A stretch of 61,230 bases of DNA from a virus (IMGVR_UViG_3300028025_002039:1-61230); one strand, 5' to 3'. Positions 682 to 51,670 are shown, numbered from the stretch's first letter. The notes: generated by a model from the sequence alone, not told the origin. Translations and numbers: made by a program.

Positions 682-1845
682 ATGTCAGAAGAAATTATCA
701 AAAATATGCCTTCAGGTGCGTCTCCAGTTTCTGGATACCCTAACGCTGAAGGTGCTTTCGGTACAGCAGATAGCGTTTCGTCAGGTACAGGTGCTTTTTC
801 CGAGCACGGTACTTTTCTGGGCAACAGCCCAACCGCTAACTTTGGTGTAACCACTGGTGCTAATGGTGTAAACCCATCAGCCACTGCAAGTCCAACATAC
901 CCAGGTACTGGTATCCTACGCCCTGAACAGGCACGTCGTTTCATCGACTATGTTTGGGACGCAACTACCCTTGCTCAGGACGGACGCAGAGTGACTATGA
1001 GAGCAAACACAATGGAACTTGAGAAGATTAACGTGGGAGACCGTGTTATTCGTGCTGCAAGCCAGGGTGTTTCAACATACACTAACACTGGTGCCACCTT
1101 CTCTAAGGTAGAACTAACAACCAAGAAGATTCGTCTAGACTGGGAAGTTTCTGCAGAGTCACTTGAAGACAACATCGAAGGTGCTGCTCTTGAGGACCAC
1201 CTAGTTCGTCTTATGACTAATGCTTTCGGTAACGACATCGAAGACCTAGCCATTAACGGTGACGGTTCGACAGGTTCGTTCCTAAGCATTATGAACGGAT
1301 TCATTAACTTGGAGAAGACCAACCCAAACGTTGGTTCTGGTTCAAACCTTGGAAGTGCACACGAAGTAATTAACACAACTCTAGTTGGGTCAAATGCTGC
1401 GTTCACAGACTGGACTACTGAAAGACTGCAAGCACTTATCTTGGCTATGCCTCGCAGATACCGTGCCATCACAAATGGACTAAAGTTCTATGCTGGTACA
1501 GACACATTTGCTAACATCGTTAAGAATAACGCTACTGTCTACTCAACCATTGGTTCGACCGAAAACACTCGTAACGAGTTCATCGGTGGTGCAAACCAGA
1601 CCTTTGGTGGAGCACGTCAGACTCGTGTTCTAGGTGTACCTGTTCTTGAAGTTCCTTACTACCCTGCAGGATTCGTTGACCTAACGTTCCCACAGAACCG
1701 TATTTGGGGCTTCCAGAGAGATATCACTGTGAACCGTTTCTATGTACCAAAGAAGGACACTGTAGAATATACAGTATTCGTTCGCTTTGGAATTGCATGG
1801 GAAGAACTGGATGCAGTTGCATTCGCAGACGCAGCAGCAGAGTAA
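682..1845 (+). CDS. Major capsid protein (HK97 fold)
   Basis: AGGAGG RBS before ATG 682; motifs GILRPEQARRFID, FGNDIEDLAINGD and VLGVPVLEVPYYP are typical of HK97-type capsids. Confidence 0.9.
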   Translation: MSEEIIKNMPSGASPVSGYPNAEGAFGTADSVSSGTGAFSEHGTFLGNSPTANFGVTTGANGVNPSATASPTYPGTGILRPEQARRFIDYVWDATTLAQDGRRVTMRANTMELEKINVGDRVIRAASQGVSTYTNTGATFSKVELTTKKIRLDWEVSAESLEDNIEGAALEDHLVRLMTNAFGNDIEDLAINGDGSTGSFLSIMNGFINLEKTNPNVGSGSNLGSAHEVINTTLVGSNAAFTDWTTERLQALILAMPRRYRAITNGLKFYAGTDTFANIVKNNATVYSTIGSTENTRNEFIGGANQTFGGARQTRVLGVPVLEVPYYPAGFVDLTFPQNRIWGFQRDITVNRFYVPKKDTVEYTVFVRFGIAWEELDAVAFADAAAE

Positions 1846-1869
1846 TCTGTCAAACGTCACCCTTTGATT

Positions 1870-1900
1870 GGGGGTAGGGATTAATTTCTCTACCCCCTTT
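1870..1900 (+). terminator. Intrinsic terminator after the capsid gene
   Basis: GGGGGTAGGGA...TCTCTACCCCC hairpin followed by TTT. Confidence 0.7.
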
Positions 1901-1946
1901 CTATATTTATCTGGTATAATTAAAACAAATCTAAGGAGGTTTTATC

Positions 1947-2330
1947 ATGGCTGAAGAAAAAAAGACACCTACCCCAAAGCCTGTTGTTGCAGAAGCAGTT
2001 GTAGAAGCACCAGCAGAAGTTGTTGTGGAGGATGTAATCGTAGCACCAGAATCCAAGAAAGACGTACCTACATTGGGATTCAATGAGGACGGCGTAATGG
2101 GTTCAACAACTACCGCTGCTGGAAAAGCAAAGGTAGAGAAGGCAGTAGCAGCAGAGGCTCCAGTAACCACAAAGGTTGCTCTATTCTCAACTCGCAACGT
2201 ATATGCAGATGGTTTTGGAAAGATTAATGTTGGTTACAACATTGTTCCAAAGAAGCATGTAGACTTCTGGACAGCACAAAGAGGCATTCGCCTTGCAACT
2301 CCAGAAGAAGTAGCGGAGGCATTTGCCTAA
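1947..2330 (+). CDS. Putative head-associated virion protein
   Basis: TGGTATAAT promoter and AAGGAGG RBS; acidic N-terminus; between capsid and adaptor genes. Confidence 0.55.
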   Translation: MAEEKKTPTPKPVVAEAVVEAPAEVVVEDVIVAPESKKDVPTLGFNEDGVMGSTTTAAGKAKVEKAVAAEAPVTTKVALFSTRNVYADGFGKINVGYNIVPKKHVDFWTAQRGIRLATPEEVAEAFA

Positions 2331-3467
2331 ATGGAGGTTTTGAGAGTTCCGCCTTATCCTATTACGGTTAAATTTGACGTGCCTAGTGCAAACACAGCAT
2401 ACTCAATTTATGTAGAGGATTTGGTGGACCACTCATTCGAAACATCCACACTAACCTCAGACTCAGGAAAACAAATTTCTTATGTTTTGCCAAGGTCAAA
2501 GGTACAGTTTGACCGTGACTTTCTGTTTAAAGCAACAGACTCAAGCGGTGAAGTTGTAGTAGAAGATAACCTAAGCGTTTACAGACCATATGTAAACCCA
2601 AACACTCTTGCTACAACTGCTGCAGATATTGCGGAATACAAGAAATGGGAAATCATTGCTAGGTCTATGATGGACCAATATCTAAACAATTCAGATTTCT
2701 ACAATCACAAACTAGTTATTGTAAAAGAAGGTCAGGGAGGAGATTACTTCCCAATCTGGCATCCAGTAAACAGAGTTCTAAAAGTATACGAAAACAATGT
2801 TCTTACCTATAACGGAGAAGACGTTGCCATCACTCTAAACACACAGACTCCAACAATCTCTTCTGGAACAGTAACCCTGACAACAGCATCTGCACACGGC
2901 TTTGAGGTTGGGGATGTAGTCACAATTGCAACGGTAGTTCCAACTGGATATCGTGGCACATTCTCAGTAACAGCAGTACCAACCACAACATCATTTAGTT
3001 TTTCAAACTCAACCACAGGTAACGTAACTACAGCAGGAACTGTTACAAGAATTTGGGAATATGAATACAAGACTTTGCTAGATGGCTCTGCTATTGCAAG
3101 AGTAGAAGCAAATGGGACATACAATAGAAGCCAGTCTACCCCACTAAGGCTTCCACCGTCCTCTGGTGACCTTGGCGGATACCCTGGTGGTGCTCTCGTA
3201 GCATTCCCAGAAGGACACGATTTTACGTTTATTCTTGACGCTGGCTACAAAACCATTCCACCAGATGTTGAGAAGGCTGCCCAGATTTTGGTAGAAGAGT
3301 TAAAGTGCGGAAACAATGACTACTACAAGAGATTTGTTACACAGTATAGCACGGAACAATTTGACATTAAGTTTGCCCCACAATTTTTGGAGGGAACTGG
3401 CAACATGCTCGTTGATAAAATTCTTAACAACTACAAGGGCAATACGTTCAAGCCAGCAATACTATAA
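2331..3467 (+). CDS. Head-tail adaptor with an inserted Thr-rich beta domain
   Basis: C-terminal AGYKTIPPDVEKAA...VDKILNNY resembles gp6/gp15-like adaptors; gene position. Confidence 0.65.
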   Translation: MEVLRVPPYPITVKFDVPSANTAYSIYVEDLVDHSFETSTLTSDSGKQISYVLPRSKVQFDRDFLFKATDSSGEVVVEDNLSVYRPYVNPNTLATTAADIAEYKKWEIIARSMMDQYLNNSDFYNHKLVIVKEGQGGDYFPIWHPVNRVLKVYENNVLTYNGEDVAITLNTQTPTISSGTVTLTTASAHGFEVGDVVTIATVVPTGYRGTFSVTAVPTTTSFSFSNSTTGNVTTAGTVTRIWEYEYKTLLDGSAIARVEANGTYNRSQSTPLRLPPSSGDLGGYPGGALVAFPEGHDFTFILDAGYKTIPPDVEKAAQILVEELKCGNNDYYKRFVTQYSTEQFDIKFAPQFLEGTGNMLVDKILNNYKGNTFKPAIL

Positions 3468-5995: not shown

Positions 5996-6700
5996 ATGCC
6001 TACACAAATATACGAAATTTCAGAAGTTGAACTTATCGACGGAACAATCATAGAAATATCACCACTAAAAATTAAGTATCTCAAGCAATTCATGGAAAAG
6101 TTTGAGTCGGTAAAGCAAGCAAAAAACGACGAAGAATCAATCTCAACACTAGTAGAGTGCATAAGAATAGCAATGAAGCAATACCTACCTTCAATTAAGA
6201 CAATAGAAGATGTTGAGGATAACGTTGACCTACCAACAATATATAAGATTATTGAATTGTGTGCAGGTATCAGAATTAACCAGTCTGAAGAAACAGAGAA
6301 AAAGCCAATATCCCCACAGCCACCATCCGAAAACACTTGGGAAAAGTTAGACTTGGCAAAACTAGAATCTGAGTTGTTTGTTTTGGGGTCTTGGAAAAAC
6401 TTTGACGACCTAGAGTCAAATATATCAATGCCAGAACTAATGGCTATCCTTGAATCAACTAGGGAATTGGATTACAGTGAAAAGAAGTTTATGGCTGCAA
6501 TGCAGGGTGTAGACCTAGACGAACAAACTGGAAAGAAAGAGGAAGACCCTTGGGAAGCCATGAAAGCCAGGGTTGCATCCCAAGTTTCTGGTATTGGTAA
6601 TGGAGACCCTAACGACATTACATCTCTACAAGGACAGAAAGCACAGCAGTACGGATTCGGTATCGGCATGGGTCTTGACTACGAAGTTGTTTCAAAATAA
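5996..6700 (+). CDS. Tail assembly chaperone, long (GT-like) form
   Basis: Between tail tube and TMP; N-terminal ~95 aa paralogous to 6744..7070, followed by a T-like domain (WKNFDDLESNISMPEL). Confidence 0.7.
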   Translation: MPTQIYEISEVELIDGTIIEISPLKIKYLKQFMEKFESVKQAKNDEESISTLVECIRIAMKQYLPSIKTIEDVEDNVDLPTIYKIIELCAGIRINQSEETEKKPISPQPPSENTWEKLDLAKLESELFVLGSWKNFDDLESNISMPELMAILESTRELDYSEKKFMAAMQGVDLDEQTGKKEEDPWEAMKARVASQVSGIGNGDPNDITSLQGQKAQQYGFGIGMGLDYEVVSK

Positions 6701-6743: not shown

Positions 6744-7070
6744 ATGTCTACAACTATTAACGAGACAAAAACTGTAGAACTACTAGACGGAACTAAGATT
6801 CCAGTTCGTCCACTAAAAATCTCTCTTCTTCGCCCTTTTATGACAAAGTTTGAGGGTATTGCAGAAGTAGCAGATAACAACGAGAAGTCTATGACTCTTC
6901 TCATGGAGTGTGTCCAGATTGCTCTAAAGCAGTACGCTCCAGACCTAGCAACAGACCTGAAGGCACTAGAAGAACTTCTAGACCTTCCGACCGTATACAA
7001 GATTGTCGAAGAGGCATCTGGTATCAAACTCAGCGAAGCCTCGCTAATGGGTGGTCTAATTAACGGCTAA
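6744..7070 (+). CDS. Tail assembly chaperone, short (G-like) form
   Basis: Own promoter (TGTTATAAT) and AGGAGG RBS; paralog of the N-terminal half of the previous gene. Confidence 0.7.
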   Translation: MSTTINETKTVELLDGTKIPVRPLKISLLRPFMTKFEGIAEVADNNEKSMTLLMECVQIALKQYAPDLATDLKALEELLDLPTVYKIVEEASGIKLSEASLMGGLING

Positions 7071-7088: not shown

Positions 7089-10000
7089 ATGGCTGATATC
7101 GAAACCAATGTAAATATAAATATAGATACGTCAGATGCTCTGTCGCAACTAAAACTTTTACAACAGCAGATATCAGCCTTTCAGCAAGCAATGAAGAATG
7201 CTGGTGCAGCCAACGCTCAAGCAGCAGCCCAGATGCAATCAAACCTAGTAAATTCAATTAATGCTACTGGGAAATTTAGAGCAAATATACAAACAATTAA
7301 AACAACTGCCGAATCTTTTACAGAATCGCTTGAAAAAAACAAGATGTCTATTGGCGAATACTTTCGCTACGCAGGTGGGGCATCCAAGACTTTTGGTAAG
7401 TTGTTCAAGTCTGAGTTTGAAACAATCAATCAGGTTGCTCGTGAACGAGTAAAGGAACTACAGACACAATACATTAAACTTGGTAGAGATGCCAACGGTG
7501 CAATGAAAGCAATTTCTGTAAGACCGCTATCTCTTGACATGGAAAGTCTGGCAGTAAAAACCCAACTGGCAGCACAAAGACAGCAACTGTTTAACCAGTT
7601 GATGAAACAGGGTTCAACTCAACTTCTAAACTTCGGTAAGAATACACAATGGGCTGGTCGTCAGTTGATGGTTGGTTTTACCATTCCACTTACCCTTATG
7701 GGTTCTGCTGCTGCCAAAGCATACATGGAAATTGAAAAGGCTTCCATTTCCTTCAAGCGTGTTTATGGTGACATCAACACAACAGCAGGTGAAACCGAAA
7801 AGATGGTTAAGCAGGTTCAGGCTCTTGCCAGCGAATTTACCAAGTATGGTCTAGCAGTTGCAGATACTATGGACATGGCAGCCAAGGCTGCTGCTATGGG
7901 TAAGACTGGGGTAGACCTACTAGCACAGATTGACCAAGCAGCAAAACTATCTGTATTGGGTAACGTAGACCAGGCACAAGCCCTAGAAACAACCATCTCT
8001 CTAACAAATGCTTTTAGAGTCTCTACAGATGAACTAGCATCAAGCGTAGACTTCTTGAACGCAGTAGAAAACCAAACCGTAGTTAGCATTGAAGACCTTA
8101 CGATTGCTATTCCAAAAGCAGCCCCAGTTGTTCAGCAACTTGGTGGAGACGTAAAGGACCTAACGTTCTTCCTTACAGCAATGAAGGAAGGTGGCATTAA
8201 CGCATCGGAAGGTGCTAACGCTCTAAAGTCTGGTCTTGCGTCTATGATTAACCCAACTAAAAAGGCTTCCGACTTCCTCGCAACATTTGGAGTTAACATC
8301 CAAGCAATTGTTGAGGGCAACAAGGGCGACATCAAGCAAACAGTTATTGACTTCGCTAGAGCACTTGATACCCTTGACCCACTAAACCGTGCTCGTGCAA
8401 TTGAGCAGATGTTTGGTAAGTTCCAGTTCTCACGTCTATCAACATTGTTCCAAAACGTTATTGCCGAGGGTAGCCAAGCAACCAAGGTAGCAGGACTAGC
8501 AAACCAGACAGCAGAAGAACTAGCAGTGCTATCCGAACGAGAATTGAAAAAAGTCTCTGACTCACCAATGTTTAAGTTCCAGAAGTCTATCGAACAGATG
8601 CAAGCAAAACTTGCACCAGTTGGTGAAGCCTTCCTAAAGGCTGTTACTCCAATTATCGAATTCGTTACAAAGATTCTAGATGGATTTAATAACCTTAGTA
8701 GCGGAACCAAAAGTTTTATAACCATTCTTGTAACCGCTGTTGCAGGTATTGGTCCAATCTTGCTAATGACCTTTGGTCTTATTGCTAACGGTGTAGCCAA
8801 CGTAATGAAGTTGTTTACCAACATGAAGTCTTTCATTAATAAAACAACTAAGCCTTCAGACATGCTAGGTGAACAAACTGAATACATGAACACTGAGCAA
8901 CTTAAGGCAGCAGCAGTAGCAGCATCTCTTGACCAAGCACACGCAAAACTAAAGCAAACTTTCGATGCTGAAAGAGGTGCAATTGAACAACTAACTCAGG
9001 CATATCGTAACGCTGTCAACGCACAACAAGCCTTTACTGGTGTTCCTGGAGTTCCTGTAGGCGACGCTAATGCTATGACACCAAAGAAGTATGCCAAGGG
9101 TGTCTCTATGGTTCCTGGTCCAAAGGGTGCAGGAGACATTGTTCCAGCCCTACTATCCCCAGGTGAAGCAGTTATTCCTGCAAAACATGCACAGAAGTAT
9201 GCACCAGTAATTGCTGGTATGGTTGCTGGAAACCTTCCAGGATTTGAGAACGGAACCACTGGCGTAGGAATGCGTCAAAGCGTTTACGGACCAATGACGC
9301 TAAAGCAGACAGAAGGTCTTGCAAGAACTGGTGTCCAACTAAAAGACATTAGCGAGGAGGTTATGGCTGGTCCATATGCAAACGTCCCACCAACTGATTT
9401 CGGTACACAGATTTCTCCAACATCTGGTCACTCATTCCCTGCATTTGAAGTAGGTGGAATTTACCAGAAGCCAGACGGCACAAAGGTATTTGTTAAGCCA
9501 CAGATTGACCTAACTGGTGCAATGGCTGAAGTTCGTGGTACGGAGATTGCTCGCAGTGTTCATGGTCTAGTTGCTCCTAAGCAAGAAATCCGTGTAATGA
9601 TGGACCCAACAGACCCAGAGCGAAAGCGTAGATTCCTTGTTCTTGAATCAGCACTTGATGAAAGAATTGCAAACGTTCCAACTAAGTTTAGCAACAATGA
9701 GTACTTTACACAATTGGTTGCTTCACTTCTTCGTGGAGACAAAGACCTTGGTATTGGAAACCTAGGAGGCAATATCCTAGCCGATGTTGGTCCTGCTGGT
9801 GTGTTTGGCAGGGCATCTGGAAAACGTGCTCTGGGTAGTGCTGTTAACTCTATGGAAGAACAAGCCATCATTAACCTTCTTGGTGTAAAGGGTGGTGCTA
9901 AGAGATTCTTTGCAGAAGCAACTGCTGAACAAATTTCTAAGATGACTCCTGGAGAATACAATGCAGCAATGCAAGCAGAAATGCAAAGAGTTGCTCCTAA

Positions 10001-13000
10001 ACTTCAAGCAACAATTGCTGGTTTTGGAAACATGTCTCCAGAAGAACAGGCTGCTTATCAAGCAATGCAGCAACGACTCCAGACAGGTATGACTGTTGAC
10101 TGGAGCAGGTATCAGATTATGCACTCTGCTGTAAAGCCAAAAGAATACAAAAAGGGTGTAATCTCTGCTGGGTTTGCAAGTCCTAAAAACCCAATGGCAT
10201 TTGCTCAATCATTGCAAGCAATGAGCAATGAAGAAATTAAAAAGCAACTTCGTGTTCAGGATACTCACCTAGTAACAGCACTAGATATTAAAGACCCTAA
10301 ATTTTTGGCACAGGTTCAAAGAGTTTATCCTGGTGCTACAAAAGAAGAACTAGAACTATTTGAGCCAGTATCTAACCTAACTGCTCAACTTCCAGGAAAT
10401 GCAAACCAAGTTATGAAGGGAAAGAGTGGATATCCTGGTTCATTCTTTAGAACAGTTTGGGACGGACTTGAAAACAAGTTGTCAAAAACTGCTCAGATTG
10501 CTGGAGTATCGTTAAATGAATCACAGACAATAGAAAATGAAATTGGAAGTGTTATTGGTAGTTATCCAGAACTTATAAATGACACAACCATGGGCGACAT
10601 TATCGGACAGGTTCTTGGCTCTACAGCAAAAGTAACAGACGACGCAATGATGAAACGAAGAATGTGGGAGTTGTCAGAACGAGTTGCTGGTCTTCGTAGC
10701 AAACCTAAAAAGGCAAATCTAAAGCCAGGCGGTCTCGGTGGCGACGACGATGAAGGTGACGCTGGAACTACAGACATTATTCGTAAAATGTTGCAGGACG
10801 ATGCTTTGTATTGGGACAAGACAACCCTTAGAAGGAAACTTGCTTCAGGTGCGGAGGGACCACGTTTTGGTGGGGTAAACATTGACCAGTTCGGACACTC
10901 CTCTGGAAGTATTGAGGACATAGCAGCAAGAAGATTGGCACAGCAAACGCTACAAGAACTTATAGCAAATCCTAACATGCCTATGCCAAGACTTCCTAGA
11001 GCCTTCAGTCTTCCTGATAACTGGGACAAGACAAGTGCTGGTATGTCAGATGAACAGCAAATTGCACAACTAATATCAATGGCAAAGCAGGGTGCGGTCA
11101 AGGTATTAAATAATAATGACAATAACTTGGCAAAGAGAAAGCCAGGAAAACCTGCACCACTTTCATTTACAAAGCGTGATGCAGACGACAAGACATTTAA
11201 TATTGGCAAAGAAGCAAGCGGACAGGCTTACAACTCCTCAAGACTTAAGGGTTCTCCACTAAACTGGGCAGCAAATCAAACTAACGTCTTAGAGGCATAC
11301 AACGCAATGTCTCAACCATTTGAATCCTTCCAGCCAATCATTCCTCCAACAGCATCAGGTCTTAAATTCTTCAACGACCTAGCCCTAAAGATGGAAGAGG
11401 GTGGAATTGTTCCTGGTGCTAAGGCAAAGCCAAAGGCATCTGTATTCGACATTGACGACACACTGCTTGACCTATCATCTTTCATGGAGACCCACAAAGC
11501 AGAAAACGAAAAACTTCCAGAGGGTCAGAAGAAAAAGTGGTATAAGGAAGTTGCCAAAGACCCGAAGGGTATTCCAGCAGGTCTTGCTGCACTAAAGGCT
11601 GCTCAACTTCGTGGCAATAAGATTCTTCTTATGACTGCTCGTCCAGACTTCTACGAGCCATACACAATTGAGACCCTGCAAAAACTTGGTATCGATATGA
11701 ACGGTATTAAACTCATTGCAAGAAGAGATAAAGACTACCGTAAACCAGAGCAGATGAAATATGACAAAACTGCTGCGTTTATGAAGTACTATGATATTGA
11801 AGAGTTCTATGACGATATGCCTAAGACTCGTGGTGCAATTGGTCTACTTGGTATTCCAGCGTATGACCCTCTAAAACTTTCTAATGGCGTATTCTCAGTA
11901 CCAGGACCAAAGGGTGCTGGCGATGTTGTCCCTGCAATGCTTTCTCCAGGTGAGGCTGTAATCCCTGCTAAGTCAGCAGCAAAGAACCGCCCACTCATTC
12001 AGCAAATGATTTCTGGAAATGTTCCAGGATACGAGATTGGAAAGAATGACCCTGCTCCAGGAGAATCGCTTCCTAAGATTCCAGGTGTTTCAGGACCAAT
12101 TCCAGGTGTCACAGCACCACTACCAATAGTTCAGCAGGACGCAGGGAAAACAGAGAAATTCCTTGACGGAATTAAGAATGCTGTAAAGGAAGGTGCTAAA
12201 AAAGCAGTTTCTGTTATTGGAGAAAAAACTAAAGAAGCAGCCGAAACAGCACTAATTCCTTTTGTAAGATATTTAACTAATGATGAAGTTACTCTTACAG
12301 ACGAAAAGGGTAATACAAGATTTAATGCAGATACAAAAGAAACTCTTGACAAAGATGGTAACGTTGTTGCAAAACAGGTAGACCTTGAAAAACAAAAAGC
12401 AGACCTACTTGAAGAACAAAGAATTAGGGTTGAAGAAGAACTAGAGGCAACTGACCAAGAGTATGTAACTGAAAGAAGAAAAGTCGAACAACTTGAAATT
12501 AGATTGGCAAAGAATGAAGTCCTAAACGCCGAAGAACTTGCACAACTAGAAAATTCAAAAAGAATTCTTGAAGAAAAGAGAAATCTTGTTCGCAAAGAAA
12601 TGGGTTTTGAAAACGAAAAAGCCGCTAAAGAAAAGTCTGGCTTCTTTACTAGAACAAAGGGTACTGGAAATATTCAGGCAGCAGCCTATGGTTTAACCAC
12701 TGCCATGACTATGCTTTCAACAATTCCTGGTCAAATTGGAGAGACTGCACAAAAAGCACTTTTGCCACTTGGTTCATTCACAACTGCAATGTCTATTATT
12801 CCAGGTAAGGCTGGTATTCTGGTTGGTGTGTTTGCTGCCATGATAACTGCAGGAATTCAAATAAATGACCACCTAGTTAAGACAAGTCAAGAGAGTGCCA
12901 GACTTGCAAAAGCCATGGGTGCAGGAACCGAAGCAATTGGAAAGTTTGCTGAGTTTGCAAAAACTGTAAGCGGTACAGAGGCAATGAACAAGCAGCGTGA

Positions 13001-16000
13001 GCAAAGTGCTGGACAGTTCTTTAATGTTGTAGAAGGAAAAACAACATTCGGTGAATCTTACATGAAGTCCGATGCTGGTAAGCAACTTGTTAAAGATGTA
13101 AATGATTCAATTAAGCAAGGTGGCACAGGTGGTCTAGATGATGCAAAAACACTAATCACTAACCAACTCACTACTGCAATTGCAGCAGGAGTTATGACAC
13201 CAGGACAGGCTAGAAGTATTGCTGCAAATCTTGGTGCAGAGATGAAAGACATGCAGTTCGGTCTTGAGGTATCTGGAAGAATTACAGACCTAGTTGGACC
13301 AAAGGGGGAAGACCTCAAGAATGAGCCACTGCTTGTAAGAATGAGACTTGTTGAAGAAGCAGGTTCTCAATTTGAAAAGCAAGCAGGAGTTGCTAACAGC
13401 AAGGTTAACGCTGGAACTACCACAGGTGCAATTGCTGGCGGTGTTGGCACAGGCGTTGTTGCTGGTGGTGCAACATTACTAGGAGCAACAGCCATATCAG
13501 GTGCAGTTGCGTCAAGTGCCGCCCTTATGTCAACAGCAGTTGGTGCAACCATTGCATCTGGACCTTTTGCTCCTGTAACAGCAGCCATCGCAGCCATTAC
13601 CGTTGCAACAGTAATGATTGTAAACTACCAAACAGAAGTGGCAAAACAATCTGGTATCCTACAGGCTAACTTGGGCAACGTTCTTTCTGTCCAGCAACAA
13701 ATGGTTGACTCCTTAGAAATTGACTATCAAAAGAGAATTGCATCCGCAAAGGCTGCAGGAGATATTGCTGAAGCAACTAGATTGCAAAATCAATACCTAG
13801 AAGACCAAGCAAAACTTCTAGAGGTAAATGCAAAACAAACAGCAGAGATGTACGACATTCTTGACAAGCAGGGAACTGGTTTTGCAGGTATTGGAGATAT
13901 GCAAACAGCACTTGGAAATACAGCAAACGATGCAATCAAGAAGGCATTCGAAGGTACAGGTCAAGAGGTAGGTGCTCAACTAGCAACAGACACTATTAAT
14001 GCTATGTCAGCAAGCACTAACCAAAAGACAATGCTAAAGACTGCAGTTGCTCAAAAACTAATTGGCTTTGACCAAATTGGAACCGCTTCTGAAGTGTTTG
14101 GAAAAGACCAGGCAGGGGCAGACCAACTACAAAAACTTATAGAGCAAAGCCCAACAGAGGCAGGTAGAGCCTTGGGCTTGGCAACAAACCTTAAGGGCGA
14201 CCAGAAGAAACAGTTCCTCGTCGACATGAGCCTAAAGGACCCAATTGCTACAAAGCAAATGAACGATGCTCTTGAAATGGCTCAAAAGACTACTGGTGTA
14301 TTCTTTGGTCAGAAACAGGTTGCCGAAGCGGTAATGAAGTTTGCTGTAGAAAACCCAGAGCAGATGCTTCAGTTCAAGGCAAACATTGATGCACTAAAAG
14401 ACCAAAAGACAATTACTCTTGCAGTAGTTCAAAAAATTATGGGTCCAAGCATTTCTAAACTTCTTGGCGACAAAGGCGTTGCTAAATTCTTTACCAAGTA
14501 CAACAAAGAAAACAAGATTGTATTCTTGACAGAACTGCAACAGATTATGGCTATGAAGGGTGACCCAGAAATGATTGCCTCTTGGAACCTTTGGAACAAA
14601 GAGAATGGTCAGACAAAGAGTTTTGCTGAGTACGCTGCGTATCAGGCAGATAGAACTGTTACTACTCAGGGTGTAGACAATACTTTTGGTGCAGGTGAAA
14701 AGAAAGATTCTGGTGCTGGCAGTGGTCCACAAGCGTCTATCCTAGACCAGTTTGTTCAGATGGCTAGAGAGGGTTCTAACTTCCAGCAAAAACTAACTGT
14801 TGGATGGGACGCTTCTTACAAGGCTCTAAAGAACTACACAACAAAATCAATTAGCCTTATGGCTGGTTGGGCGGTACGTCTAAAACAGCAGGGTGTAGAT
14901 GCTAACATTATCGACATCTTTATGGGTGCTACTGAAGAAGAGCAAAACAAAATTCTAGATAAGAGAACTGGTAAGTTAAAGGCTGGTGCTTTTAAACTTC
15001 TAGAAGACATAAAGAAGATTAAGGACATGCGTGAATTTGGTCTTACTTATGTTCTTGCAAGTGACACAGAGAGAATGGCTAAAGACAATGAACTTTTCCA
15101 GGCTGGTCTTGACGTTATTGCTGGTAAAGAAAAGAAGATTAATGACAGATACGACAAGAGAATCAAGGCTCTTGATGAAATTGGAAAACTGCAAGAAAGA
15201 AACAACCAGCAACAGCAGGATACACTAACTATTGCAGACGCACTCTCTAAGGGTGACATTGCTGGTGCTGCTAGAGCGGCTCAAAAAGCAAGAGAAAATA
15301 TGCAAAGACAGGCTTTGGAAAATGCCAAGGCAAGTGTTGAAAAAGCACGTCAAGATGAACTAGCAGCAATCACTGTAAAGATTCTTGGCGAAAGCAAGAC
15401 AAGGGCACAAATAGAAGCAGATATGGTAGTCAATACTGAAAAGATTGCTGCAGCGAAACTTCTAGAAATGAACCGTCAAATTACAATTGGAAAGAATGCT
15501 GTTATTGCAGCAGACGCTGCTGCTAGACAACTTAAAAACAATAAGTTGATAAACCAACTTCCTGGATTTAATGGCTCTAGCAGTGGCAACGGAGGCAACG
15601 ACGGCGGAAAAGATGGCGGAAAGGATGGCAAAGATGATGGCAAAGATGGGGGCAAGGATGGCGGTTCAAAAACAAGTTCTGGTCTAAAAGGTGCAGTTCT
15701 TTCTTCATCTATGAGTGCTAGTGGTCAGAAGGCACAGATGGCTAAGGTTGACGCTGTTATTGCACAAAAGAATGATGGAACTGGTGCTGCAAAAGAAGCA
15801 TCACAGGCGTACTTTACTGCAAAGGCTAAGGCTGGACCAGAAATGAGTAACGCTGAAGCAGCAAAGAAATTTGGCGGAACAAACACACAAAAGTTTAAAG
15901 ACTGGCAAGCAAATCAAACAGCACTTGCAGCGGCACTCACAAAGGCAGAGAGTTTTGGAATTGTTTCGGGCGGCAAGGTTAAGACATCAGCAGACATCGA

Positions 16001-16913
16001 TGCTTTGACAGACAAACAAAAAAGAGGTATAACCAACTCTGCAGGAAATCAGGCAGTTGTAACTGAACTAATGAAACAGATTCCAGCAGAAATTGCAGAT
16101 AGGGCTGCAGTACTTAAAAATGCTGCAAAGAAATTTAAAAAAGACCAAACTGAACTAGATGGTTTAAAGACTTCACTTAAGACTGCAATGGGCAAGGTTT
16201 CTGGTGCATCAATGTCTACTCTTGCAGCAGATTATCAAAAATGGTTAAATAGTTCAGATGCCGCAAGACCATCTACAACTTTTGGAAAAATTATTGCTGC
16301 TGGCGGAGACCCAGAAGCATTTATGAAAAAGGCAACTGGAATTGCCAGATACTTTGTCACTGTAGACAAATACAGAAACGAACTAAGGGCTGGTGGCTAC
16401 ACCGACTCAAAACTTTATCAGGCAGGTCTTTTTGACTATAACTATGGAGACGATGGACAGACCACCAAACAGACTTCAGACTTTGCAACTGGTCAAATGT
16501 TTGTTGAGCGTGGTCCTTTTAAAGGTGGAACAATTGGATACGCTGCAAAAAACATTGTTCCAGATGGCGAAAACATAACTAGATTTAGTAATAAATACTA
16601 CGCTATGGGTGGAATGGTTTATGCAAACAGGGGTCTTGAGATTGCTGCAAGCAAGTATGCACTAGGAACAGACACTATTCCTGCTATGCTTACACCAGGC
16701 GAATTTGTTATGCAAAAGTCTGCGGTAGACTCAATTGGTGCAGACAGGCTTACCTCTATGAATAACGGAACATCAATGGGCGAATCCGTGTATAATTATA
16801 GTATTACAGTAAACGCTACAGGAAACGGTCTGGATGCCAATGACCTTGCTAGACAAGTCATGGAACAGATTAAACGAGTAGACTCACAAAGAATTAGGAG
16901 CAATAATTACTAA
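7089..16913 (+). CDS. Tape measure protein, 3274 aa, with embedded kinase-like and HAD phosphatase domains
   Basis: TP901-type TMP core (GINASEGANALKSGL); Ala/Gly-rich hydrophobic segments; coiled coils; C-terminal GTDTIPAMLTPGEFV motif. Confidence 0.92.
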   Translation: MADIETNVNINIDTSDALSQLKLLQQQISAFQQAMKNAGAANAQAAAQMQSNLVNSINATGKFRANIQTIKTTAESFTESLEKNKMSIGEYFRYAGGASKTFGKLFKSEFETINQVARERVKELQTQYIKLGRDANGAMKAISVRPLSLDMESLAVKTQLAAQRQQLFNQLMKQGSTQLLNFGKNTQWAGRQLMVGFTIPLTLMGSAAAKAYMEIEKASISFKRVYGDINTTAGETEKMVKQVQALASEFTKYGLAVADTMDMAAKAAAMGKTGVDLLAQIDQAAKLSVLGNVDQAQALETTISLTNAFRVSTDELASSVDFLNAVENQTVVSIEDLTIAIPKAAPVVQQLGGDVKDLTFFLTAMKEGGINASEGANALKSGLASMINPTKKASDFLATFGVNIQAIVEGNKGDIKQTVIDFARALDTLDPLNRARAIEQMFGKFQFSRLSTLFQNVIAEGSQATKVAGLANQTAEELAVLSERELKKVSDSPMFKFQKSIEQMQAKLAPVGEAFLKAVTPIIEFVTKILDGFNNLSSGTKSFITILVTAVAGIGPILLMTFGLIANGVANVMKLFTNMKSFINKTTKPSDMLGEQTEYMNTEQLKAAAVAASLDQAHAKLKQTFDAERGAIEQLTQAYRNAVNAQQAFTGVPGVPVGDANAMTPKKYAKGVSMVPGPKGAGDIVPALLSPGEAVIPAKHAQKYAPVIAGMVAGNLPGFENGTTGVGMRQSVYGPMTLKQTEGLARTGVQLKDISEEVMAGPYANVPPTDFGTQISPTSGHSFPAFEVGGIYQKPDGTKVFVKPQIDLTGAMAEVRGTEIARSVHGLVAPKQEIRVMMDPTDPERKRRFLVLESALDERIANVPTKFSNNEYFTQLVASLLRGDKDLGIGNLGGNILADVGPAGVFGRASGKRALGSAVNSMEEQAIINLLGVKGGAKRFFAEATAEQISKMTPGEYNAAMQAEMQRVAPKLQATIAGFGNMSPEEQAAYQAMQQRLQTGMTVDWSRYQIMHSAVKPKEYKKGVISAGFASPKNPMAFAQSLQAMSNEEIKKQLRVQDTHLVTALDIKDPKFLAQVQRVYPGATKEELELFEPVSNLTAQLPGNANQVMKGKSGYPGSFFRTVWDGLENKLSKTAQIAGVSLNESQTIENEIGSVIGSYPELINDTTMGDIIGQVLGSTAKVTDDAMMKRRMWELSERVAGLRSKPKKANLKPGGLGGDDDEGDAGTTDIIRKMLQDDALYWDKTTLRRKLASGAEGPRFGGVNIDQFGHSSGSIEDIAARRLAQQTLQELIANPNMPMPRLPRAFSLPDNWDKTSAGMSDEQQIAQLISMAKQGAVKVLNNNDNNLAKRKPGKPAPLSFTKRDADDKTFNIGKEASGQAYNSSRLKGSPLNWAANQTNVLEAYNAMSQPFESFQPIIPPTASGLKFFNDLALKMEEGGIVPGAKAKPKASVFDIDDTLLDLSSFMETHKAENEKLPEGQKKKWYKEVAKDPKGIPAGLAALKAAQLRGNKILLMTARPDFYEPYTIETLQKLGIDMNGIKLIARRDKDYRKPEQMKYDKTAAFMKYYDIEEFYDDMPKTRGAIGLLGIPAYDPLKLSNGVFSVPGPKGAGDVVPAMLSPGEAVIPAKSAAKNRPLIQQMISGNVPGYEIGKNDPAPGESLPKIPGVSGPIPGVTAPLPIVQQDAGKTEKFLDGIKNAVKEGAKKAVSVIGEKTKEAAETALIPFVRYLTNDEVTLTDEKGNTRFNADTKETLDKDGNVVAKQVDLEKQKADLLEEQRIRVEEELEATDQEYVTERRKVEQLEIRLAKNEVLNAEELAQLENSKRILEEKRNLVRKEMGFENEKAAKEKSGFFTRTKGTGNIQAAAYGLTTAMTMLSTIPGQIGETAQKALLPLGSFTTAMSIIPGKAGILVGVFAAMITAGIQINDHLVKTSQESARLAKAMGAGTEAIGKFAEFAKTVSGTEAMNKQREQSAGQFFNVVEGKTTFGESYMKSDAGKQLVKDVNDSIKQGGTGGLDDAKTLITNQLTTAIAAGVMTPGQARSIAANLGAEMKDMQFGLEVSGRITDLVGPKGEDLKNEPLLVRMRLVEEAGSQFEKQAGVANSKVNAGTTTGAIAGGVGTGVVAGGATLLGATAISGAVASSAALMSTAVGATIASGPFAPVTAAIAAITVATVMIVNYQTEVAKQSGILQANLGNVLSVQQQMVDSLEIDYQKRIASAKAAGDIAEATRLQNQYLEDQAKLLEVNAKQTAEMYDILDKQGTGFAGIGDMQTALGNTANDAIKKAFEGTGQEVGAQLATDTINAMSASTNQKTMLKTAVAQKLIGFDQIGTASEVFGKDQAGADQLQKLIEQSPTEAGRALGLATNLKGDQKKQFLVDMSLKDPIATKQMNDALEMAQKTTGVFFGQKQVAEAVMKFAVENPEQMLQFKANIDALKDQKTITLAVVQKIMGPSISKLLGDKGVAKFFTKYNKENKIVFLTELQQIMAMKGDPEMIASWNLWNKENGQTKSFAEYAAYQADRTVTTQGVDNTFGAGEKKDSGAGSGPQASILDQFVQMAREGSNFQQKLTVGWDASYKALKNYTTKSISLMAGWAVRLKQQGVDANIIDIFMGATEEEQNKILDKRTGKLKAGAFKLLEDIKKIKDMREFGLTYVLASDTERMAKDNELFQAGLDVIAGKEKKINDRYDKRIKALDEIGKLQERNNQQQQDTLTIADALSKGDIAGAARAAQKARENMQRQALENAKASVEKARQDELAAITVKILGESKTRAQIEADMVVNTEKIAAAKLLEMNRQITIGKNAVIAADAAARQLKNNKLINQLPGFNGSSSGNGGNDGGKDGGKDGKDDGKDGGKDGGSKTSSGLKGAVLSSSMSASGQKAQMAKVDAVIAQKNDGTGAAKEASQAYFTAKAKAGPEMSNAEAAKKFGGTNTQKFKDWQANQTALAAALTKAESFGIVSGGKVKTSADIDALTDKQKRGITNSAGNQAVVTELMKQIPAEIADRAAVLKNAAKKFKKDQTELDGLKTSLKTAMGKVSGASMSTLAADYQKWLNSSDAARPSTTFGKIIAAGGDPEAFMKKATGIARYFVTVDKYRNELRAGGYTDSKLYQAGLFDYNYGDDGQTTKQTSDFATGQMFVERGPFKGGTIGYAAKNIVPDGENITRFSNKYYAMGGMVYANRGLEIAASKYALGTDTIPAMLTPGEFVMQKSAVDSIGADRLTSMNNGTSMGESVYNYSITVNATGNGLDANDLARQVMEQIKRVDSQRIRSNNY
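9087..12041 (+). repeat. Intragenic direct repeat of ~55 aa (9087-9254 and 11874-12041); third degenerate copy near 16653-16770
   Basis: VPGPKGAGDIVPALLSPGEAVIPAK vs VPGPKGAGDVVPAMLSPGEAVIPAK; DNA differences are mostly synonymous. Confidence 0.9.
15585..15665 (+). repeat. Low-complexity GGKD tandem repeat in the TMP
   Basis: GNGGNDGGKDGGKDGKDDGKDGGKDGG. Confidence 0.85.
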
Positions 16914-42515: not shown

Positions 42516-42588
42516 TCCCCTATAACTCAGTTGGTAGAGTGTTCGGCTGTTAACCGAAATGTCATTGGTTCGAGTCCAGTTGGGGGAG
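42516..42588 (+). tRNA. tRNA-Asn(GTT)
   Basis: Acceptor TCCCCTA/TGGGGGA; anticodon arm TTCGG-CT-GTT-AA-CCGAA; GTTCGAGTC T-loop. Confidence 0.93.
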
Positions 42589-42594
42589 CACACA

Positions 42595-42686
42595 CCAAGC
42601 GGTATGCGAAAGCATAGTTGGCTTTAACAGGATACTAGTAAAGACTGTTACAGATGTTGTCCCTATCTGGGTTTTGACAAGGGACA
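42595..42686 (+). ncRNA. Unidentified structured RNA (two hairpins plus an H-type pseudoknot)
   Basis: TATGC-GAAA-GCATA hairpin; TAACAG/CTGTTA stem; CAGAT/ATCTG interleaved with TGTCCCT/AGGGACA. Confidence 0.45.
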
Positions 42687-42689
42687 TTT

Positions 42690-42763
42690 GATTTCGTAGT
42701 TCAGTTGGTTAGAACGCTACCCTGTCACGGTAGAGGTCGTGGGTTCAAGTCCCATCGGAATCG
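42690..42763 (+). tRNA. tRNA-Asp(GTC)
   Basis: Acceptor GATTTCG/CGGAATC; anticodon arm CTACC-CT-GTC-AC-GGTAG. Confidence 0.93.
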
Positions 42764-42767
42764 CTTC

Positions 42768-42839
42768 GCCACCTTAACTCAGCGGTAGAGTGCCATACTT
42801 GTAATATGGAGGTCAACAGTTCGAATCTGTTAGGTGGCT
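42768..42839 (+). tRNA. tRNA-Thr(TGT)
   Basis: Acceptor GCCACCT/AGGTGGC; anticodon arm CCATA-CT-TGT-AA-TATGG. Confidence 0.93.
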
Positions 42840-42886
42840 CTGATTATGCTTTATGGTATAATTATTTTAGAAGGAGATGATGCGTT

Positions 42887-43858: not shown

Positions 43859-44088
43859 TGACATCAGAACTTCTAGATACACCAGCAAAAGAATGGCAAC
43901 TAACTGCCACCGATAGATGCGACTACTGTGGAGCACAAGCATACGTCCGTGTAACAGGAGTAACAGGCTCGCTTGATTTCTGTGGACACCACTACAATAG
44001 ACACCAAGATAAACTAACTTCGTTTGCCTTTGAAACTATTGATGAACGAGACAAACTTATTGAGAACAGGCTTCAGGGCGAAGACTAA
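43858..44088 (+). CDS. Small zinc-binding protein of actinobacterial type
   Basis: LTATDRCDYCGAQAYV...FCGHH. Confidence 0.7.
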   Translation: MTSELLDTPAKEWQLTATDRCDYCGAQAYVRVTGVTGSLDFCGHHYNRHQDKLTSFAFETIDERDKLIENRLQGED

Positions 44089-45008
44089 TGAAACATCCAG
44101 TCTTTCAATACAACGAAGCATTCTTTGGTGGAACAGAAACAATGGCTAGAGGATTTATTAAAAACATTCTGCCAGACATGACAAACATTCACAAGTACAC
44201 TAATGTAATTATTCCAGGACACTTGCCAGACCTTCAGACCATGGGCATTGACGGAAGCAGATATATCTTTTGGCTTCACAATAATGTTAGCCAGTTCATT
44301 GGACCTGTAGGAAGACTATTAAATAATAATCTGGTTAGAAAAGCAACTGAACGTGTCATTGCTGTATCCGAATACGAAAAGAAAGTTCTAGCAAAAGAAC
44401 TAGACATGGACCTAAGTATGATTTATGTAATACCAAATGCAATTGAGTTGGCTACCCCAAACCCAGACAAGTTTAAAAAGATTGATAAGGTTAAACTTAT
44501 CCATGCATCCACTGCCGAACGTGGCATGGATATTTTACTAAAGGCTGTGCCATTAATTGAGGAAGACTTTGAACTAAATATCTTCAATGACTTCTATCCA
44601 GACCTACCACACAACTATAGCCTAGATGGTGTCAATGATTCAAGGGTAAACTTCTATGGCAAGACACCACGCAAGACGCTATACAAATTCTTTGCGGATG
44701 CTCACATCCACGCCTACCCATCCACCTACCCAGAAACGTCCTGCCTGACACAAATGGAAGCCATGTCTGCTGGATGCTACACAGTCCACACAGACTTGGG
44801 GGCATTGCCAGAAACATCTTTGGGATATGGAATAATGATTCCGTCTCACGAACTTACGCCAGAACGATATGCAGAAGAACTAACCAAGGCTATCAGGATG
44901 ATTAAAGAGCAAGGGTATGACTACACACAGCAAGTAGAAGATATCAAGAACAACTTCACCTGGGACAAAGCAAAGCAAAACTGGCTTGCTTTTGATGCAA
45001 CAATCTAG
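44088..45008 (+). CDS. GT-B (GT4-like) glycosyltransferase
   Basis: GGTE; AVSEY; VIPNAI; AYPSTYPETSCLTQMEAMSAG (EX7E). Confidence 0.88.
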   Translation: MKHPVFQYNEAFFGGTETMARGFIKNILPDMTNIHKYTNVIIPGHLPDLQTMGIDGSRYIFWLHNNVSQFIGPVGRLLNNNLVRKATERVIAVSEYEKKVLAKELDMDLSMIYVIPNAIELATPNPDKFKKIDKVKLIHASTAERGMDILLKAVPLIEEDFELNIFNDFYPDLPHNYSLDGVNDSRVNFYGKTPRKTLYKFFADAHIHAYPSTYPETSCLTQMEAMSAGCYTVHTDLGALPETSLGYGIMIPSHELTPERYAEELTKAIRMIKEQGYDYTQQVEDIKNNFTWDKAKQNWLAFDATI

Positions 45009-49516: not shown

Positions 49517-49830
49517 TGATTAAAGCACCAGAAGACATTATCATTATCAAGATGGAGAAGAAGAGTTCAGAGCCTGAGCAGAATGCCAGCGGTCTCTTGA
49601 TTATCCGCAACGAAGTAGATGAACCAAAGAACATCGGTGTTGCCTTTGCTGTAGGCGAGGGTAGACAACTAAAGAGCGGTGTTCGTGTACCAATGGACGT
49701 TAAGGTTGGAGACAAGATTATGTTTAATCCAAACAACGTTGTCAAGTTTAAGCATGAGGGTGAAGACTACATCTCACTATTTAGTGCAAGCGTATTGGCT
49801 ATCCTAGGAGATGAAGATGGAGAAGATTAG
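49516..49830 (+). CDS. groES: GroES-like co-chaperonin
   Basis: SGLLI; GVAFAVGEG; DVKVGDKI; VLAIL. Confidence 0.85.
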   Translation: MIKAPEDIIIIKMEKKSSEPEQNASGLLIIRNEVDEPKNIGVAFAVGEGRQLKSGVRVPMDVKVGDKIMFNPNNVVKFKHEGEDYISLFSASVLAILGDEDGED

Positions 49831-51576: not shown

Positions 51577-51649
51577 CCCCTCGTAACTCAGTGGATAGAG
51601 TAGGAGCCTTCTAATCTCTTAGTCGCTGGTTCGATTCCAGCCGAGGGGA
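51577..51649 (+). tRNA. tRNA-Arg(TCT)
   Basis: Acceptor CCCCTCG/CGAGGGG; anticodon loop CT-TCT-AA; GTTCGATTC. Confidence 0.9.
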
Positions 51650-51670
51650 CAGATAAGGTATAATAAGAAT

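Follow-up and report, generated by a model that had tools for sequence, protein, structure and literature searches.

What is a series of kinase-like motifs doing inside a phage tail tape measure protein (TMP)? The question arises from a 61,230-nucleotide stretch of viral DNA (here called the window), in which the ORF list and translation gave a single open frame on the + strand (7089..16913) that encodes a protein of 3,274 aa. This protein is a TMP. It matches PF10145 at aa 247-443 (E 7.8e-26) and PHROG TMP families (best E 1.7e-97), its gene is located 3' of two tail-assembly-chaperone-like ORFs and 5' of minor tail proteins, and it carries hydrophobic segments and a conserved C-terminal motif. 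The C-terminal 105 aa resemble TMPs of Clavibacter, Stenotrophomonas, Rhodococcus and Gordonia phages. A first-pass annotation of the DNA had proposed, for positions 9255-10140 (TMP residues 723-1018), an atypical kinase domain that is delivered with the virion and could act on host proteins or lipids.

The TMP comprises an N-terminal core, three copies of a joint peptide, a cassette bounded by the first two copies and a long ruler region (Table 1). The joint copies were located with a profile built on 230 motif instances. When 26 related loci were compared, the first joint was found in all of them (median identity 89.7%) and the core in 25/26 (81.5%). The kinase-fold domain came close to the core (74.6%), and the ruler was the least conserved part (48.7%, with 9/26 loci covered). 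Hydrophobic, membrane-type segments are located at aa 540-572 within the core (Kyte-Doolittle peak 2.19) and at aa 1900-1926 and 2123-2181 within the ruler.

Table 1. Features of the TMP gene, with positions counted from the first nucleotide of the window.
Feature	Residues (aa)	Position	Strand	Basis
N-terminal TMP core	1-660	7089..9068	+	common to 111/150 listed relatives
Joint peptide copy 1, includes VPALLSPGEAVIP	666-724	9084..9260	+	profile match E 4.1e-23
Kinase-fold domain	738-1021	9300..10151	+	AF2 model, VIA search, homologue search
Gly-rich VGGIY	788-792	9450..9464	+	start of model strand 76-79
K803 in VFVK (800-803), predicted ATP-anchoring Lys of strand beta-3	803	9495..9497	+	model residue 89, strand 85-90
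E814 in MAE (812-814), predicted helix-C Glu pairing with K803	814	9528..9530	+	model residue 100, helix 94-111
Catalytic loop and metal-binding motif, R882-G-D884-K-D886-L-x3-N891-x7-D899-V-G901	882-901	9732..9791	+	loop after helix 155-168
Orphan conserved region, kinase/phosphatase interval	1030-1425	10176..11363	+	AF2 on alignment A2, pLDDT 82.3
HAD-superfamily IIIB acid-phosphatase-like domain	1425-1595	11361..11873	+	PF03767 E 5e-15
Joint peptide copy 2	1596-1652	11874..12044	+	profile match E 2.4e-23
Ruler region, long, Ala/Gly/Lys-rich	1653-3180	12045..16628	+	composition, hydropathy
Joint peptide copy 3, close to C-terminus	3182-3233	16632..16787	+	profile match E 1.9e-18

All five kinase landmarks named by the first-pass annotation occur in the proposed order, the last two being GDKDLGIGN at residues 883-891 and ADVG at 898-901. 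The folded unit extends slightly outside the region first proposed, with limits at residues 738-1013 according to the model and 751-1021 according to homology. It is composed of an N-terminal helix, a five-strand N-lobe with helix C, a catalytic loop and a helical C-lobe. Residues were assigned to catalytic positions by secondary-structure order, not by superposition. On this basis, K803 and E814 occupy the expected strand and helix, their pairing being read from the secondary structure. The putative catalytic Asp (D886) is followed five residues on by N891, the D-to-N spacing of a kinase catalytic loop, and downstream by the Asp of a DxG motif (D899-V-G901). The catalytic motif covers two short strands (model 178-183) in a kinase-like arrangement; D899 comes after a short hairpin, and the spacing from N891 to D899 is short, at eight residues.

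An exhaustive homologue search at E ≤ 1e-3 yielded 166 representative relatives, 150 of which were listed and 124 of the latter span the domain. G790, K803, E814, N891 and D899 are each invariant in these 124 domains, D886 is present in 123 (with Val in the exception), G901 in 121 (three Ser) and D884 in 118 (six Asn). Y792 is kept in 97% of homologues, and past the DxG motif A909 and a nearly invariant S910 are kept in 99% and 98%. Only 11 columns of a 35-row alignment (A1) are invariant, including K803, E814, N891 and D899, and the catalytic residues persist in relatives down to ~29% identity. The conservation of the catalytic Lys and Asp, on which the first-pass annotation had staked its reading, was thus borne out. 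As the landmarks were named before any homologue had been seen, and yet fall on those columns that the family conserves best, their presence goes beyond chance.

The structure predicted by AF2 from A1 (pLDDT 91.4, pTM 0.86) is two-lobed, with the secondary-structure order of a protein kinase-like (PKL) fold. VIA, a search independent of Foldseek, was run against 48,161 PDB chains. Kinase-fold proteins account for all 50 matches listed, with 14 chains at Z ≥ 8. The top match is the Bacillus cereus spore-coat kinase CotH (PDB 5jda/5jd9; 5jda_A, Z 12.1, rmsd 3.9, 216 residues aligned), and further matches include MavQ (7m7a_A, Z 10.3), CtkA (3akj_A, Z 9.2), HipA (4pu3_A, Z 9.0) and PI4KII-alpha (4pla_A, Z 9.0). 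The small-molecule/RNA kinases MPH-E (6.9), ArkI (6.1) and APH(2'') (5.9), which share the kinase fold, come lower. Re-scoring of the Foldseek list agrees (CotH 11.0; CtkA 10.4; PI4KII-beta 10.2; MavQ 9.8; LepB 9.5), with Z ≥ 8 for 60/1,000 chains; Vps34 scores ~9. Foldseek itself places CtkA first in the PDB (E 1.6e-3, prob 1.00) and returned no PDB match at E ≤ 1e-3, so that the fold assignment draws mainly on the in-house aligner and the unanimous match lists. In BFVD, nine matches at E ≤ 1e-3 are kinase-fold domains of large phage proteins whose labels read portal, ADP-ribosyltransferase, head-morphogenesis or PI3K/PI4K domain. The nearest named Atlas clusters by protein-language features are HipA_2, LepB_N and PI3_PI4_kinase (0.92 each), which serve as leads only. 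The PI3/4-kinase/HipA/CtkA-type fold proposed at first therefore stands, and the nearest solved structures extend beyond that group to CotH, MavQ, LepB and Fam20C.

The sequence, on the other hand, belongs to no named kinase family searched. Pfam gave no match to the domain at E ≤ 10, and only scattered chance matches, none to a kinase family, at E ≤ 1 over 35 members. NCBIfam and PADLOC returned no match to the domain, and a PDB profile search by sequence gave nothing relevant to it. Three candidate families were rejected. For PI3_PI4_kinase, the PF00454 profile is unmatched and the signature His of DRHxxN is absent, the loop reading D886-L-G-I-G-N891. For HipA (HipA_C/HipA_2), there is no Pfam match and the likeness is structural only. 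For CotH, PF08757 has no match in the record, and hhalign of A1 against an alignment of eight CotH domains (A3) gave a probability of 0.05% (E 0.81). Because Pfam, NCBIfam and PDB sequence matches are lacking, the module defines a new family at the sequence level, inside the kinase-like superfamily. Judged from the modelled fold, this family sits in the atypical branch with CotH, CtkA, HipA, PI4K/PI3K, MavQ/LepB and Fam20.

The family is restricted to TMPs and its placement is cassette-like. All 26 relatives tested are TMPs, with PF10145 found in 14/14 and 12/12 scanned. Among the 150 listed relatives, 127 measure at least 1,500 aa and 111 possess the TMP N-core. A joint is found ≤ 60 aa upstream of the module in 68/124 cases and ≤ 60 aa downstream in 45/124. 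The module starts anywhere from aa 351 to aa 2845, and the cargo downstream of it varies among relatives; two TMP relatives carry OmpA or Peptidase_M23 modules. In isolated phages, a tblastn search with the domain over 50,697 records gave no match.

On balance, we lean towards the reading that aa 738-1021 form a self-contained, catalytically competent PKL-fold enzyme that is delivered by the TMP and phosphorylates a host target. From the fold and motif order, K803, held by helix-C E814, would bind the ATP phosphates, N891 and D899 would bind Mg2+, and D886 would serve as catalytic base and activate the hydroxyl of the substrate. The module is placed as a cassette directly after the first of the three joints, with TMP segments of membrane type on either side. 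TMPs occupy the tail tube and leave it before the DNA does. The kinase would therefore reach the host cytoplasm, or face it, as protein made beforehand, and could use host ATP to phosphorylate its target ahead of all phage gene expression. A protein Ser/Thr would be the most likely target and a membrane lipid the second choice. Virion delivery and such early action, which the first-pass annotation also proposed, are inferred solely from the place of the module inside the TMP; an already synthesized kinase probably enters the infected cell with the virion.

The dimensions of the tail tube count against such delivery. The lumen of a tail tube measures ~4 nm, and three to six copies of a folded ~31 kDa module do not fit side by side. 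The module would therefore have to pass either unfolded or one copy behind another, and then refold. In the accessible text on phage lambda, the TMP leaves before the genome and forms a trans-envelope channel, and six TMP filaments take up more than 20% of the lumen within the tail tube (PMC12617516). The same text describes enzyme-bearing or proteolytically processed TMPs, with peptidoglycan hydrolase domains or as in lambda gpH and T5 pb2, that are ejected before DNA (PMC12617516). The hydrolases have their substrate, the cell wall, outside the cytoplasm, whereas a kinase would need access to the cytoplasm because it needs ATP. A close parallel is gp96 of Thermus phage P23-45, in which, according to the part of the paper available, a TMP and a functional virion RNA polymerase are joined in one protein (PMC10770324). 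In both cases a large enzyme lies within a giant TMP, and gp96 has been proposed to work in the freshly infected cell, at the entry pore. There, however, the polymerase is N-terminal and its activity was shown experimentally, whereas here a predicted kinase follows the TMP core, between joints. Enzyme-bearing TMPs are thus already known as a kind, and it is the kinase-fold cargo that differs here; no description of such a TMP module was found in the literature searched.

The proposed substrate and timing can be compared with other kinases. CtkA of Helicobacter pylori and HipA/HipT share the atypical Ser/Thr kinase fold and target the proteins of another cell or of their own cell, causing arrest. 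Unlike those enzymes, the present module showed neither an antitoxin partner nor a HipA N-terminal subdomain, and its loop reads D-L-G-I-G-N. The Legionella effectors MavQ and LepB likewise reach their target cell ready-made, via a secretion system instead of, as we suppose here, a phage tail. The kinase T7 gp0.7 is produced once infection has begun and does not arrive with the particle. It nevertheless embodies the same idea, early phage modification of host proteins, as do the kinases of polyvalent proteins, which are encoded by phages and plasmids and in some cases occur in multidomain virion proteins (Iyer et al. 2017, PMC5512222). Membership of the latter group was rejected: as far as the accessible text goes, those kinases have lost the whole C-terminal subdomain and tape measure proteins are mentioned 0 times (PMC5512222), whereas the present module retains its helical C-lobe (model helices 208-299).

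Protein and lipid kinases score alike among the best structural matches, which brings up a kinase of lipids or envelope precursors as an alternative. Such an enzyme would stay with the TMP channel at the inner membrane face and phosphorylate a membrane lipid or lipid-linked precursor, aiding penetration or remodelling the membrane, in analogy to PI4K, MavQ and LepB, whose targets are phosphoinositides. The position of the cassette between hydrophobic segments (aa 540-572 and 1900-1926) and the LepB_N and PI3_PI4_kinase clusters among the nearest leads are in line with this. We nonetheless regard it as unlikely: the module shares the fold of PI3K/PI4K-type enzymes and differs from them in lacking the PF00454 match and the DRHxxN His and in its short N-to-D spacing, and the Z scores do not tell lipid from protein kinases. 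The first-pass annotation had reasoned from the phosphatidylinositol of actinobacterial membranes, an idea that found no support. The one genome match is an 85-kb contig of 42% G+C; the bin that holds it bears the label Bifidobacterium, and the remaining contigs sampled from that bin have G+C contents of 60%, 41% and 62%. Streptomyces and Gordonia phages match the TMP N-terminus at < 32% identity, in a collection in which such phages abound. Nothing in these results separates a protein from a lipid substrate.

Alternatively, the kinase could act during assembly, in the phage-producing cell, on tail or TMP components or on itself and thereby control tail assembly, with no action required in the next host. 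The model here is CotH, which phosphorylates spore-coat proteins and, as the single best structural match, likewise combines an atypical kinase fold with work on a large protein assembly. CotH differs in being a free-standing bacterial protein of spore assembly rather than part of a virion protein, and in showing no sequence kinship. Restriction of the family to TMPs and the near-invariant S910 would also suit a role in assembly. Against it, the variable position of the module and of the cargo behind it fits cargo better, and most TMPs, those of the nearest isolated phages included, assemble without the module. We therefore rate this account as quite unlikely. That CotH acts in assembly and not on a foreign cell does count against a delivered effector.

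The HAD domain in the same cassette raises a third possibility, that the kinase fold serves other chemistry or another substrate: AMPylation of the SelO type, SidJ-like glutamylation, or transfer of phosphate to nucleotides, small molecules or nucleic-acid ends, in the last case as an end-healing pair with the HAD domain, like T4 Pnkp. The HAD domain has its motif I (DIDDT) at aa 1454 and matches phrog_415 (E 5.6e-13), whose PHROG name is polynucleotide kinase; it scores under the cut-offs of the NCBIfam acid phosphatase and 5'-nucleotidase models. The HAD of one relative weakly matches PF25109 (HAD_PNKP, E 5.5e-5, under cut-off), and small-molecule/RNA kinases do appear lower in the VIA list. 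A HAD phosphatase shares the joint-bounded cassette here and in 8/14 complete close relatives, but occurs in just 8/150 listed relatives, which shows the kinase to be independent of it. In addition, known polynucleotide kinases have a P-loop fold, which counts against the end-healing option, and the complete canonical K, E, D, N, D set is typical of ordinary phosphotransfer, so that we consider this alternative highly improbable. The orphan region between the two domains resembles no known fold in VIA (best Z 3.7) or Foldseek (best E 1.0) and was found in eight TMPs, the present one and seven relatives, all eight of which have the HAD domain.

That the module is an inactive filler, either a pseudokinase or a segment that only adds length to the ruler, is barely credible: tail length is set by TMP length and Val replaces D886 in one relative, but the catalytic residues are kept across distant relatives and the domain is conserved well above the ruler.

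The candidate kinase module is embedded in the tape measure protein (TMP) of a 61,230-bp viral contig with an estimated completeness of 57% and a G+C content of about 42%. The TMP carries PF10145 (Pfam, E 7.8e-26) and matches the PHROG TMP families (best E 1.7e-97), and its gene is flanked by two chaperone-like ORFs upstream and by minor tail proteins downstream. Both upstream neighbours match phrog_10504 (E 2.3e-23 and 6e-18) and the first has an additional phrog_10474 part. Instead of the customary frameshift pair, the two ORFs may represent a duplication of a tail-assembly-chaperone gene.

Positions of the TMP gene, its segments and other features in the window
Feature	Window position	Strand	TMP residues	Remark
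Upstream neighbour ORF, first	5996-6700	+		chaperone-like
Upstream neighbour ORF, second	6744-7070	+		chaperone-like
TMP gene	7089-16913	+		single open frame, 3,274 codons
PF10145			247-443	
Hydrophobic segments			540-572, 1900-1926, 2123-2181	
Joint peptide copy 1	9084-9260	+	666-724	
Region annotated as kinase at first pass	9255-10140		723-1018	
Kinase module			738-1021	predicted
Orphan region	10176-11363	+	1030-1425	conserved, between kinase and phosphatase
HAD-superfamily IIIB acid-phosphatase-like domain	11361-11873	+	1425-1595	PF03767, E 5e-15
Joint peptide copy 2	11874-12044	+	1596-1652	
Ruler region			1653-3180	
Joint peptide copy 3	16632-16787	+	3182-3233	
tRNA genes (five)	42516-42840, 51577-51650, 60613-60687			Asn, Asp, Thr, Arg(tct), Glu
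Metabolic-type genes	44088-45008, 49811-50506, 55299-55889	+		
128-aa ORF	52583-52969	-		PF03767, E 4.9e-7, C-terminal part of profile only

The first-pass annotation had claimed a PI3K/HipA-like kinase from a single sequence, naming five landmark strings, and all five (VGGIY, VFVK, MAE, GDKDLGIGN and ADVG) were found in the order stated. Relatives were collected by an exhaustive HMMER search with residues 715-1035 against 1.84 billion representatives, which gave 166 at E ≤ 1e-3, 153 at E ≤ 1e-10 and 138 at E ≤ 1e-30; at 50% identity, the family forms no fewer than 166 clusters. Conservation was counted over the 124 full-domain sequences among the 150 relatives listed, the 26 partial ones being excluded from the alignment. 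These relatives reach down to an identity of about 29%. G790, K803, E814, N891 and D899 are kept in all 124 sequences, D886 in 123 (one Val), G901 in 121 (three Ser) and D884 in 118 (six Asn). When the query was aligned with 34 of the 124 sharing less than 55% mutual identity (alignment A1, 35 rows), only 11 columns were invariant, including K803, E814, N891 and D899. The residues picked from one sequence proved to be family invariants, as predicted, and these alignments support conservation of the putative catalytic set.

The AlphaFold2 model built on A1 was confident (pLDDT 91.4, pTM 0.86). On its N-terminal side, a helix is followed by strands (K803 in strand 85-90, model numbering), a long helix bearing E814 (94-111) and two further strands. 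On the catalytic side, helix 155-168 leads into the loop R882-G-D884-K-D886-L-x3-N891, a short hairpin and D899-V-G901, and the helical C-lobe extends to residue 299. In the model, the order of these elements is that of a kinase. In the VIA wide structural search (48,161 chains), 14 chains scored Z ≥ 8, and kinase-fold proteins made up 50/50 of the matches listed. CotH was found at Z 12.1 (rmsd 3.9, 216 aligned), MavQ at 10.3, PI4KII-alpha at 10.2 and 9.0, CtkA at 9.2, ATM and HipA at 9.0, and Fam20C and actin-fragmin kinase at 8.5. Re-scoring of the Foldseek list gave CotH 11.0, CtkA 10.4, PI4KII-beta 10.2, MavQ 9.8 and LepB 9.5. With only about two Z units separating these families, none of them can be singled out as the closest. 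Foldseek itself found nothing in the PDB at E ≤ 1e-3; its best match was CtkA (1.6e-3, probability 1.00), followed by HipA, LepB, RioK1 and PI3K-gamma. The kinase-like fold suggested at first pass is supported by the model and its kinase-fold neighbours, with Foldseek alone giving weaker support than VIA. Functions were assigned to residues from topology and the Asp-to-Asn spacing of five, which is universal, rather than from superposition.

No Pfam family matched the kinase domain even at E ≤ 10 (35 members gave scattered chance matches only), NCBIfam and PADLOC gave zero matches, and PDB phmmer and profile searches returned nothing relevant; weak PDB sequence rows (leucine-rich repeats, apolipoprotein, PKC C2 domain) were judged to be chance. 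The profile-profile comparison covered CotH alone, whose alignment was made from 8 of 11 loci (the plus-strand matches), and hhalign with A1 gave a probability of 0.05%. Together, these searches argue for a new family in the atypical branch of the kinase-like superfamily, which would extend the sequence repertoire of that superfamily. The nearest named clusters by protein-language features, HipA_2, LepB_N and PI3_PI4_kinase (score 0.92), serve as a lead only. Neither the kinase domain (tblastn) nor the TMP gene (megablast) had a match in 50,697 isolate phage records, and full-text literature searches turned up no account of a TMP with a kinase in it; candidate papers that were inspected use the two terms in unconnected passages. 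The phage polyvalent-protein kinases of Iyer et al. 2017 (PMC5512222) are of a type that has lost its C-lobe, whereas the TMP module has a predicted helical one; tape measures do not figure in that paper. Nine similar-fold matches in BFVD (E ≤ 1e-3) include phage proteins labelled portal, ADP-ribosyltransferase or PI3K/PI4K domain, so kinase-fold cargo of virion proteins is not exclusive to TMPs.

The family is tied to TMPs, and all members examined are found in giant ones. A length of at least 1,500 aa was seen in 127 of the 150 relatives listed, the TMP N-core in 111 and the C-terminal segment in 103; short relatives start mid-domain and look like fragments. PF10145 is present in 14/14 complete close relatives and also in 12/12 relatives with the kinase module further along. 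Across the 150 listed relatives, the module is positioned anywhere from aa 351 to aa 2845. A joint peptide about 55 residues long, with the core (I/V)PA(L/M)L(S/T)PGE, occurs three times in the window TMP, and the gap from copy 1 to the kinase start is about 25 residues. A joint is located within 60 aa upstream of the kinase in 68/124 full-domain relatives and within 60 aa downstream in 45/124. In 26 related loci, 25 of them viral and the other a genome contig, there is no variation in the presence of N-core, joint 1 and kinase and the sequence after the kinase varies, being the orphan region in some, the HAD domain in some and other unassigned sequence in others. Median identity to the window TMP across these loci is 81.5% for the N-core, 74.6% for the kinase, 67.6% for the HAD domain and 48.7% for the ruler region, which indicates that constraint on the kinase is comparable to that on the TMP core. 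Placement of the kinase in the TMP is cassette-like.

At least one joint copy occurs in 138/151 family TMPs and three or more in 76/151. The C-terminal copy resembles the TMP ends of Clavibacter, Stenotrophomonas, Rhodococcus and Gordonia phages and cyanophage proteins. Two kinase-module TMPs, P0065 (aa 2678-2771) and P0138 (aa 2198-2291), also have an OmpA peptidoglycan-binding or Peptidase_M23 domain, so the kinase and envelope-directed cargo co-occur in one ruler.

TMPs are usually viewed as passive rulers and channel formers, and to our knowledge the P23-45 virion RNA polymerase is the only well-documented TMP-fused enzyme besides cell-wall hydrolases. The tail tube is about 4 nm wide, and three to six folded 31-kDa modules side by side exceed its lumen, so the modules would need to lie unfolded or one behind another. 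According to PMC12617516, lambda gpH* is located in the tail tube, its ejection has to precede that of the genome, and it makes a trans-envelope channel; the TMPs of lambda and T5 undergo cutting, and several TMPs carry wall hydrolases. In P23-45, the virion RNA polymerase borne by the TMP is active, and the pore is its suggested place of action (PMC10770324). From fold and motifs, we infer that ATP would be held by K803 and E814; Mg2+ would be held by N891 and D899, and D886 would serve as catalytic base. As to delivery and substrate, we infer, with these other TMPs as the basis for the delivery step, that the module would exit the tail together with the TMP, before the DNA, refold at or inside the cytoplasmic membrane and phosphorylate a host target ahead of phage gene expression. 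The kinase could only be useful in the cytoplasm because it requires ATP. Physical passage through the lumen is the weak point of this reading.

Taken jointly, the data tentatively suggest, at somewhat less than an even chance, an undescribed kinase family in the tail tubes of uncultured long-tailed phages that is injected before the DNA, with the joints as sites of cargo swap and perhaps release. If true, this would be the first phage re-wiring host phosphorylation by means of an enzyme made beforehand and passed through the tail, accompanied in some lineages by a HAD phosphatase and orphan-fold cargo. A conserved, intact kinase across hundreds of TMP lineages would turn the tail into an injector of host-modifying enzymes and open a route to immediate-early host takeover or counter-defence without phage gene expression. 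It would also raise the physical puzzle of how a 31-kDa enzyme travels through a tube of such width and then refolds.

The sole genome match is an 85-kb contig with 42% G+C in a bin labelled uncultured Bifidobacterium. The sampled contigs 1, 2, 3 and 10 of this bin (G001, loci L039-L042) have G+C contents of 42%, 60%, 41% and 62%, and the label was dismissed as evidence for a Bifidobacterium host given this mixture; the 85-kb phage-like contig, and perhaps also contig 3, looks wrongly binned. The nearest isolates of the TMP N-core are Streptomyces (127/255 records) and Gordonia phages (87/255), with best rows at about 28-32% identity in a collection rich in such phages. The Atlas hints at Spirochaetota as host, which is a lead. 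The earlier argument from phosphatidylinositol in an actinobacterial host therefore finds no support here. A module acting at the membrane on a lipid or precursor, to which the structural ties to PI4KII, MavQ and LepB would point, is unlikely, as the domain has no PI3K/PI4K profile match and its loop is without His.

We consider a CotH-like kinase acting at assembly time quite unlikely: although CotH ranks first among the structural matches, the position and neighbours of the module vary in the fashion of cargo. Among these neighbours, the orphan region gave a confident model (pLDDT 82.3) that resembles no fold already known (best VIA Z 3.7, best Foldseek E 1.0), no family match in Pfam, NCBIfam or PADLOC and no Atlas neighbour (best score 0.75). 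Its invariant polar residues include H1060, N1096, N1106-Q1107, K1130-L-S-K1133, E1149, D1165, R1203 and R1259. It occurs in eight TMPs (the window TMP and seven relatives), all with the HAD domain, and its first ~250 residues are found again in four further TMPs. The HAD domain has the motif DIDDT at aa 1454 and a further match, to a PHROG annotated as polynucleotide kinase. A different chemistry or class of substrate, one version being an end-healing pair with this phosphatase, is improbable: the HAD domain is present in the window TMP and 8/14 complete close relatives but in only 8/150 of the wider relatives listed. That the kinase module is inert filler is scarcely credible in view of its invariant catalytic residues.

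Elsewhere in the window, the separate 128-aa ORF could represent a second phosphatase or just a fragment. The phage also encodes five tRNAs and a set of metabolic-type genes, including a cobalamin adenosyltransferase (PF01923, E 1.3e-58), ThyX (E 5.7e-39), glycosyltransferases and a cytidylyltransferase-like gene.
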